Shown piece after piece: positions 62,751 through 63,562 of a stretch of 64,000 nucleotides of DNA. The position numbers were made by a program, and so were the translations under genes. The notes under the pieces were generated by a model. It did no database searches. It saw only the letters and a program-made list of their open reading frames with translations, and was not told the DNA's origin. This DNA is from Eledone cirrhosa (taxonomy: Eukaryota), in the NCBI GenBank assembly GCA_964016885.1, contig OZ024746.1, forward strand, positions 98,332,001 to 98,396,000, written 5' to 3'. Positions within the stretch are counted from its first letter, which is position 1; each line of letters opens with the position of its first letter.

Positions 62751-63158
62751 TTTTAGAACATCCTAATTTATTTTATTCTACGTATTTCGAAGATGCAAGG
62801 CTTATGTATAACATAAGCCAAAACATGTTCTTTTCAGATAAAATCCACGGGAGATAGAGAAATTCTTTGATATGCAGGCGGTCAGACGAGCTGTTCAGAT
62901 CTGTGGTATTGATGCTCTGTAATAGCGATGTATATATGACTAAGTAAGTGACGTAGTCACTACTTTAAAACTCATAGCGAATGTTCTTCAAAATGTTTTT
63001 AAATAAACTGACAGTATATTATCAAATATACTATATATACATACATCGCTATTTCAGAGTACCAATACTAATTCCTAATTTTTGATTGACCGGCAACCGC
63101 TCTGTTTAATCAGCTCTTAAACATCACTGGAATTCTATAAGAATGTAGCTTCTATAAC

Positions 63159-63247
63159 TCTCGGCAGAAGCGAAGGGATATTTAATCTTGACAACCGCTA
63201 ACGAGCGAGAAACGGCCGTCGATTACTTCCCTTTGCTTTTTCCGAGA
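63159..63247 (+). ncRNA. type I hammerhead ribozyme, U3-A8 core variant with extended stem I
   Basis: TCTCGGCAGAAGCGAAGGGA..TAATC-TTGACAA-cCGCTaacgAGCGa-GAAA-CGGCCG-TC-GATTA..TCCCTTTGCTTTTTCCGAGA. GUC triplet. Decayed sister at 56301-56393. Confidence 0.75.
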
Positions 63248-63562
63248 CTAAGTAAGTGACGTGGTCACTACTTTAAACCTTATAGCGAATGGTCTTCAAA
63301 ATGTTTTTAAATATATATTATAAACATACAGTATATTATCAGATATTCTATACCTCCATTCATATATATTCTGCTTGCCCCAAAGCTGTCCTGTGTTTGT
63401 TTGTATGTGTTTGTGTGTGTGTGTGTGTGTGTGTTATCTTTTTTTGTGTCTATACGTTTTAGTAAGCAGCCAAAATTCTGCTTGCGTCAACCGACGTAAT
63501 TGATCAACTCAAGATTCTATAACGCATGCGCTGCATGCGTTGCATGCACGGACCCTTCGCCC

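Follow-up and report, generated by a model that had tools for sequence, protein, structure and literature searches.

Among the small mobile repeats of animals, the non-LTR retrozymes (PMC7229834; bioRxiv 10.64898/2026.07.22.740005) are the closest described counterparts of the element considered here. In the parts of those sources that were available, they are tandem units of 150-450 bp with low GC and no ORF, carry one type I hammerhead ribozyme per unit, range from monomers to long arrays and co-occur with Penelope-like elements (PLEs). Circles and cleavage have been demonstrated for the coral, mussel and axolotl retrozymes (PMC7229834, in its available part), and the mobilisation of retrozymes by PLEs has, in what this literature offered, so far been proposed from that co-occurrence and from similarity to PLE pseudo-LTRs (pLTRs). 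PLEs themselves leave a recognizable trace, i.e., a tail at one end, a 5' inversion and a preference for microsatellite targets (PMC8557442, available part), and the origin of the tail and of the inverted arm is without explanation in those portions of the cited literature. A hammerhead variant with U3-A8 in its core was described from the pLTRs of Cercyon, a PLE of Schistosoma mansoni (PMC4209133, available part); the same source terms the G10.1-C11.1 pair highly conserved, and treats a palindromic helix III as the signature of hammerheads that are active as dimers.

The window, i.e., the whole 64,000-nt stretch of Eledone cirrhosa DNA that was analysed, contains an element that, on the features open to testing, would be an animal non-LTR retrozyme with a PLE insertion footprint, for which cleavage and circles are predicted. 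It has an ORF-less unit (308 bp, in a lineage of 315-324 bp), one type I hammerhead and PLEs in the same genome, and it shares with the retrozymes as described above the unit size, the low GC, the range from monomers to long arrays and, with HHR_Amex2 of the axolotl, a mismatch at the base of helix II. It departs from them in having U3-A8 in the core, a C.A mismatch and a long distal helix I, and its two fixed 3' ends, its 5' inversions and the pairing of a short with a long end are undescribed for retrozymes in the available parts of those papers; the circles and the cleavage demonstrated in coral, mussel and axolotl are, for this family, predictions. The likeness to the Cercyon hammerhead (PMC4209133, as available) extends to the type I fold, the U3-A8 covariation and a palindromic helix III predicted to act as a dimer, but here the ribozyme is part of a tandem unit that is not autonomous, its subfamily lacks G10.1-C11.1, and it belongs to a lineage in which both core states occur and can be traced. 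With the EN+ PLEs and the non-autonomous MRC1 of Chlamydomonas (PMC8557442, as available) the family shares partial tandems, an inverted 5'-truncated arm and microsatellite targets; the tail of EN+ PLEs is 30-40 bp and often at one end, while that of the window family is 26-33 nt and equals the start of the next unit, and unlike them the family has no ORF and no detected likeness to the 3' end of a helper. The plant LTR retrozymes, with a type III hammerhead in LTRs and a 4-bp target duplication, do not fit, the window fold being type I. Literature searches returned no description of the family in the source parts available, and the supplements of PMC7229834, PMC4209133 and the 2026 preprint could list it. 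The animal retrozyme class and the U3-A8 variant were already known, and what is added are statistics of the copy ends and a core swap that recurred inside a single lineage.

Anatomy of the element and its hammerhead

The sequence-only reading had recognized a tandem with a period of 308 bp, its motif starting at 62938 and again at 63246, and had placed a U3-A8 hammerhead between the two starts; both observations were borne out, the ribozyme being a type I fold at 63183-63225. The extent given for the unit, 62938-63345, stood as a tandem but not at its right limit, since the forward arm reaches approximately 63363-63369. The repeat pair (62938-63046 and 63246-63363) is 82% alike, a 9-nt AT insertion included, and over a 110-nt segment the two differ at 9.3% of the aligned positions, so the insertion must be old. 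An inverted left arm, overlooked in the earlier reading, is the reverse complement of 63037-63068 (87.5%, blastn), and with it the copy obeys the arm rule described below for the family: the inverted arm has the long end and the forward arm the short one. The monomer has lost 8 nt relative to its 316-317-bp relatives. At this locus there are no ORFs of at least 150 aa and there is no convincing target-site duplication (the best match is 4 nt, offset by 2). As it carries a single hammerhead, this copy alone could not release a monomer, and the insertion has decayed and shows no evident function.

Features of the element, its hammerhead and related pieces in the window (positions of the 64,000-nt stretch)
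Feature	Position	Strand	Remarks
Inverted left arm	62906..62937	-	32 bp; family 3' tail, unit positions 100-131; long fixed end
Full monomer period	62938..63245	+	308 bp; relatives 316-317
Second, partial period	63246..63369	+	ends at short fixed 3' end, ~63363-63369
14-nt motif	63130..63143	+	upstream of ribozyme; common to the whole 315-324-bp lineage
Long hairpin enclosing hammerhead	63160..63246	+	87 nt; extended helix I; fold z = -5.37
Helix I	63183-63187/63221-63225	+	extended by distal stem 63160-63246
Core UUGACAA, positions 3-9	63188..63194	+	U3 and A8; U3-A8 in 79/86 copies
Helix II region	63195..63208	+	4 bp, 63196-63199/63204-63207; C.A mismatch replaces G10.1-C11.1
G12-A14, helix III and C17	63209..63220	+	GAAA 63209-63212; predicted cut after C63220
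Helix III	63212-63219	+	8-nt palindrome
Sister copy	56295..56518	+	flanked by (TG)n/(TA)n; its ribozyme has decayed close to the cut
Third piece	55881..55963	+	83/83 identical to 56373-56455, sister's 12-nt deletion included
Neptune-type PLE 3' end (label presumed)	51061-51810		abundant element; fixed end, then (TA)n
AT-rich PLE endonuclease fragment	9251-10009	-	27% identical to one at 51061

A scan of the window with Rfam at the gathering threshold gave zero matches, its models missing the U3-A8 hammerhead. The fold was assessed by covariation in an alignment of 86 of the 91 hammerhead copies (L015, two of L034, L051 and L067 were left out for deletions or truncation). In these copies 90% of the cells in the proposed helices are paired, and double-sided changes occur in 140 cells, where shuffles gave 66 and slid controls no more than 51, counts that are inflated by relatedness among the copies although the changes nonetheless fall in each helix; compensated changes from G-C to A-U number 27 for helix II and 28 for helix III. 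Of the 86 copies, 59 have an intact core. Position 11.1 is A in all 86 and 10.1 is C in 69, and in place of the canonical pairs, C3-G8 and G10.1-C11.1, the window subfamily has U3-A8 and C.A; both pairs are canonical in its relatives L309 and L310. Because G10.1-C11.1 is absent, the predicted ribozyme of this subfamily may cut poorly, and in the available part of the 2026 preprint (bioRxiv 10.64898/2026.07.22.740005) eight of nine retrozyme dimers assayed did not cleave. Across the subfamilies helix III is 8-13 nt long and mostly palindromic or one pair off.

The wider lineage, aligned as 48 rows, holds 36 with U3-A8, six with C3-G8 and three, all from one locus, with U3.G8. In a tree of 42 rows, built with the core columns removed and with the 6/48 that have other or missing 3-8 states left out, the distribution of C3-G8 and U3-A8 needs two changes, and the AU test rejects a single U3-A8 clade (p 6e-52). 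The core pair thus appears to have switched at least twice within the lineage, with the qualifications that recombination could mimic two U3-A8 origins and that the direction of the switch depends on the root of the tree. The units of one array (L311, G000:C2:83743800-83746100) have U3.G8 and an extra A before GAAA, and are nested in a U3-A8 clade. Taken together, the compensated helices I-III, the near-palindromic helix III and the double core switch would indicate that a working fold was under selection while the family amplified.

Other motifs and repeats lie elsewhere in the window. A simple pattern scan found further hammerhead-like motifs at 4795 (-), 26347 (+), 36073 (-), 36590 (+) and 58098 (-), those at 36073 and 58098 resembling minimal PLE hammerheads. 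At 62123-62434 a 45-bp unit is repeated 6.9 times (98%), apparently by expansion within a SINE-like repeat that is also present at 59234-59404, and the 150-bp repeat to the left of the element (62600-62750), which is unrelated to it, recurs in opposite orientation at 42733-42881 (90%). A (TGTA)n tract of 3 kb occupies 18903-21875, and 13194-15573 and 17267-18483 are what we take to be fragments of LINE-type RTs.

Dispersal, copy ends and the pairing of arms

In this 3.0-Gb genome, DNA searches returned 1737-2387 first-look candidates for the family, which are not copy numbers, and tight patterns gave 420 (one 29-mer), 150 and 82 exact matches with 0 in controls. Two 14-nt motifs spaced 285-315 nt apart gave a further 482 exact matches, mostly in related subfamilies. 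The window unit is a dispersed, ORF-less repeat of ~317 bp found at many hundreds of places; its copies lie on many chromosomes, with nothing in common in their flanks beyond ordinary repeats. Units of the wider lineage have 63-81% identity to the window copy over their whole length. Exact family patterns had 0 matches in metagenome and viral contigs, and contig sets of one sample (two runs) held many diverged family copies and nothing further. The tandem copies that the sequence-only reading had suggested seeking by a genome-wide BLAST do exist, as members of this dispersed family and as arrays; the longest (L312 and L313, G000:C2:208895187-208908106) has ~42 units over ~13 kb, and its 319-bp subfamily combines U3-A8 with a canonical G10.1-C11.1. 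Copies that exceed the unit length continue into a further unit at L020, L021, L026, L038 and L156, where two tandem hammerheads are present, some with core changes. As such copies enter another unit, relatives form arrays and no ORF is joined to them, the repeat is an ORF-less unit in its own right. Tandem parts of one locus resemble each other modestly more than they do copies elsewhere (median rank 0.16 for 34 pairs), and any origin of theirs from a single molecule is hidden by age. L037 and L055 are one locus, with near-identical 246-bp units that share a private deletion, a pair typical of recent local duplication.

The ends were mapped at 90 sites anchored by a pattern in the 3' part, i.e., 30 loci and 60 more of 100 listed places. 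Loci had been chosen by their similarity or by their order along C1-C2, and a few of the anchors are not independent, e.g., L174 and L175 are one insertion and L227 and L228 have flanks in common. Two fixed 3' ends account for most of them: 45 copies stop at a short end 134-142 nt past the cut and 25 at a long end 167-175 nt past it, 26-33 nt apart, with four running into the next unit and 16 ending otherwise. A dinucleotide repeat directly follows the copy in 59 of 86. An inverted piece was present on the 5' side at 45/90 and on the 3' side at 1/90, as against 1/300 in control stretches. Among 199 clusters, 55 two-armed insertions had both ends classifiable, and 51 of these paired a short with a long end where 27.5 were expected (p 1e-11); this figure does not cover the 36 of 91 two-armed clusters with at least one end in neither class and four more that were otherwise arranged, 40 unclassed multi-strand clusters in all. 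At ten loci with a hammerhead in both arms, the same subfamily was seen, by eye, in both. The family thus has a fixed 3' end, an optional tail, 5' truncation, an inverted arm and a microsatellite target, all features of PLE-type insertion, and the two fixed ends, the inversions and the pairing of short with long are best read as a Penelope footprint.

The 5' ends are of another kind. Only 3/90 lie within 2 nt of the ribozyme cut, ruling it out as their main class. Read-through of the cut site is found in 62/90 and a length greater than one unit in 31/90, and 16/90 have their end between +9 and +20, within the hairpin's 3' arm, approximately three times the rate elsewhere. A pile-up of 5' ends at a single position was due in part to copies of another subfamily having been mapped to a single reference, and it shrank when the mapping was repeated in a subfamily-aware way with 84 references. 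These results bear on the copy at 56295-56518, which the earlier reading had taken for a permuted sister starting at the hammerhead. The sister is there (75-84% alike), but not the permutation: it starts ~67 nt upstream of the cut, ends at the long fixed 3' end of the family and differs from the window copy in helices II and III. It is a 5'-truncated monomer of another subfamily, and the notion of copies permuted at the ribozyme gives way to ends that are determined by a pair of fixed 3' start points together with a variable 5' truncation.

The third piece, which repeats part of the sister, occupies the center of a palindrome (55641-56211, with 241-bp arms that are 90% alike) belonging to another, younger PLE-type family that is 96-100% alike genome-wide. 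Each arm of the palindrome has a minimal hammerhead (cores at 56015 (+) and 55837 (-)), and a longer copy of its family, L092, extends into a GIY-YIG-like frame. Most simply, the third piece would be the product of a local template switch at the inversion junction during the insertion of the palindrome's family, an inference from the arrangement of the pieces.

Template, enzyme and rival explanations

The sequence-only reading had proposed a retrozyme-like monomer reverse-transcribed from circular or multimeric RNA, and this is supported by the ORF-less unit, the tandem, the arrays and the frequent read-through and over-length of copies. Because most copies read through the cut, few end at it and about a third exceed one unit, the cleaved linear monomer was not the usual template, and a circle or an uncut multimer, both of which fit the DNA evidence, is the likely one. 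We consider it highly probable that the element is an old, ORF-less tandem repeat of ~317 bases, with a predicted hammerhead, inserted by the RT/endonuclease of a PLE from circular or uncut multimeric RNA with two start points. Sequence anatomy, end statistics, covariation and the tree are directly shown; that the RNA cleaves, folds as a dimer and circularises, which helper acted and in what order priming took place are inferences. In such a cycle tandem copies would be transcribed, two hammerheads would pair via their palindromic helix III and cut out monomers, and these may be ligated to circles, as demonstrated for other animal retrozymes. A PLE enzyme would nick DNA of the (TA)n type, and copying would be primed at either of two points downstream of the cut (134-142 nt and 167-175 nt away), pass the ribozyme, exceed the unit length and stop variably, often in the 3' arm of the hairpin. 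If both strands of the target were extended, one arm from the short and the other from the long point, the inverted, two-armed shape would result.

Candidates for such an enzyme are plentiful, PLE-type proteins being abundant (52,284 candidates for one fragment of the window) and including frames of 585-586 aa with RT and endonuclease-like parts, presumed to be PLEs from their motifs. Three Neptune-type proteins, whose PLE label is likewise presumed, were assigned no family by Pfam, which identified one other fragment weakly as GIY-YIG. The search for a helper with the 3' end of the unit covered 30 Neptune-type 3' UTRs and the palindromic family, out of a very large PLE content; the former matched in AT-rich stretches only and the latter had no likeness to the unit. 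The Neptune-type 3' UTR has a hammerhead of its own, with a C3-G8 core and a palindromic helix III, and relatives with U.U at the base of helix II; a pattern scan of the 3' UTR of the AT-rich endonuclease fragment found none.

That this abundant PLE shares the end pattern of the family, and that its hammerhead has U.U at the helix II base, lends some interest to the proposal, also made in the earlier reading, that the copies are 5'-truncated ends (pLTRs) of a PLE once autonomous but with a body now rare or lost, their tandem look being that of PLE partial tandems. A pLTR would likewise have the fixed 3' ends, the tail, the inversions and the type I hammerhead. We nevertheless regard it as improbable, since the over-length copies named above enter another unit and never a common ORF, no common non-unit downstream sequence was seen, by eye, at any of 30 loci anchored by the 5' part, and the arrays of relatives, with as many as ~42 units, are pure. 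At 266 distinct anchors PLE-protein matches were few, lay 0.6-1.3 kb upstream in both orientations and were unjoined to the unit (a joined ORF in 0/266), i.e., the RT and GIY-YIG ORF between pLTRs that an autonomous PLE has was not found. The unit may nonetheless derive from a pLTR in the deep past, as proposed in the available part of bioRxiv 10.64898/2026.07.22.740005. More remote still is spread at the DNA level, as a satellite or by local tandem duplication with an incidental hammerhead-like motif. Long arrays exist, some of which may have been lengthened by unequal crossover, and the L037/L055 pair would suit it, but for the dispersed copies it is largely refuted by their spread across many chromosomes, by the two fixed 3' ends, by inversions confined almost wholly to one side, by the pairing of short with long and by a covariation that tracks the hammerhead fold.

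A rather different question is whether the ribozyme of the window subfamily is a silent passenger on a PLE-mobilised repeat, copied from uncut tandem transcripts with no circle, which is a variant of the explanation preferred above and compatible with its PLE part. The rarity of 5' ends at the cut and the C.A in place of G10.1-C11.1 favor it, and read-through and over-length fit an uncut multimer equally with a circle. Set against these are helices I-III that change in compensated pairs between subfamilies, a helix III of near-palindromic form throughout and a 3-8 core pair that switched twice in compensated form, and we hold the silent passenger to be unlikely, though far less so than the pLTR or the satellite.

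Meaning for retrozymes and Penelope-like elements

For PLE insertion and for ribozyme evolution the family offers material that can be counted. Its footprints are the two start points, the pairing of short with long and the read-through of the cut, and its lineage is a natural allelic series of hammerhead cores in one background (C3-G8, U3-A8 and U3.G8), with a parallel series at 10.1-11.1 of G-C, U.U, A.A or C.A. Tentatively, and with the odds somewhat against it, more may be read from the two: a viroid-sized circular RNA lineage that would have kept a working ribozyme, made two independent swaps to U3-A8, tolerated the loss of G10.1-C11.1 and re-invented a palindromic helix III for cleavage as a dimer, and whose insertions would record how a PLE extends the two strands at a staggered cut, starting from a pair of fixed points on a single RNA circle. 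If this were true, two-point extension on an RNA circle would explain the tail and the inverted arm of the PLEs.
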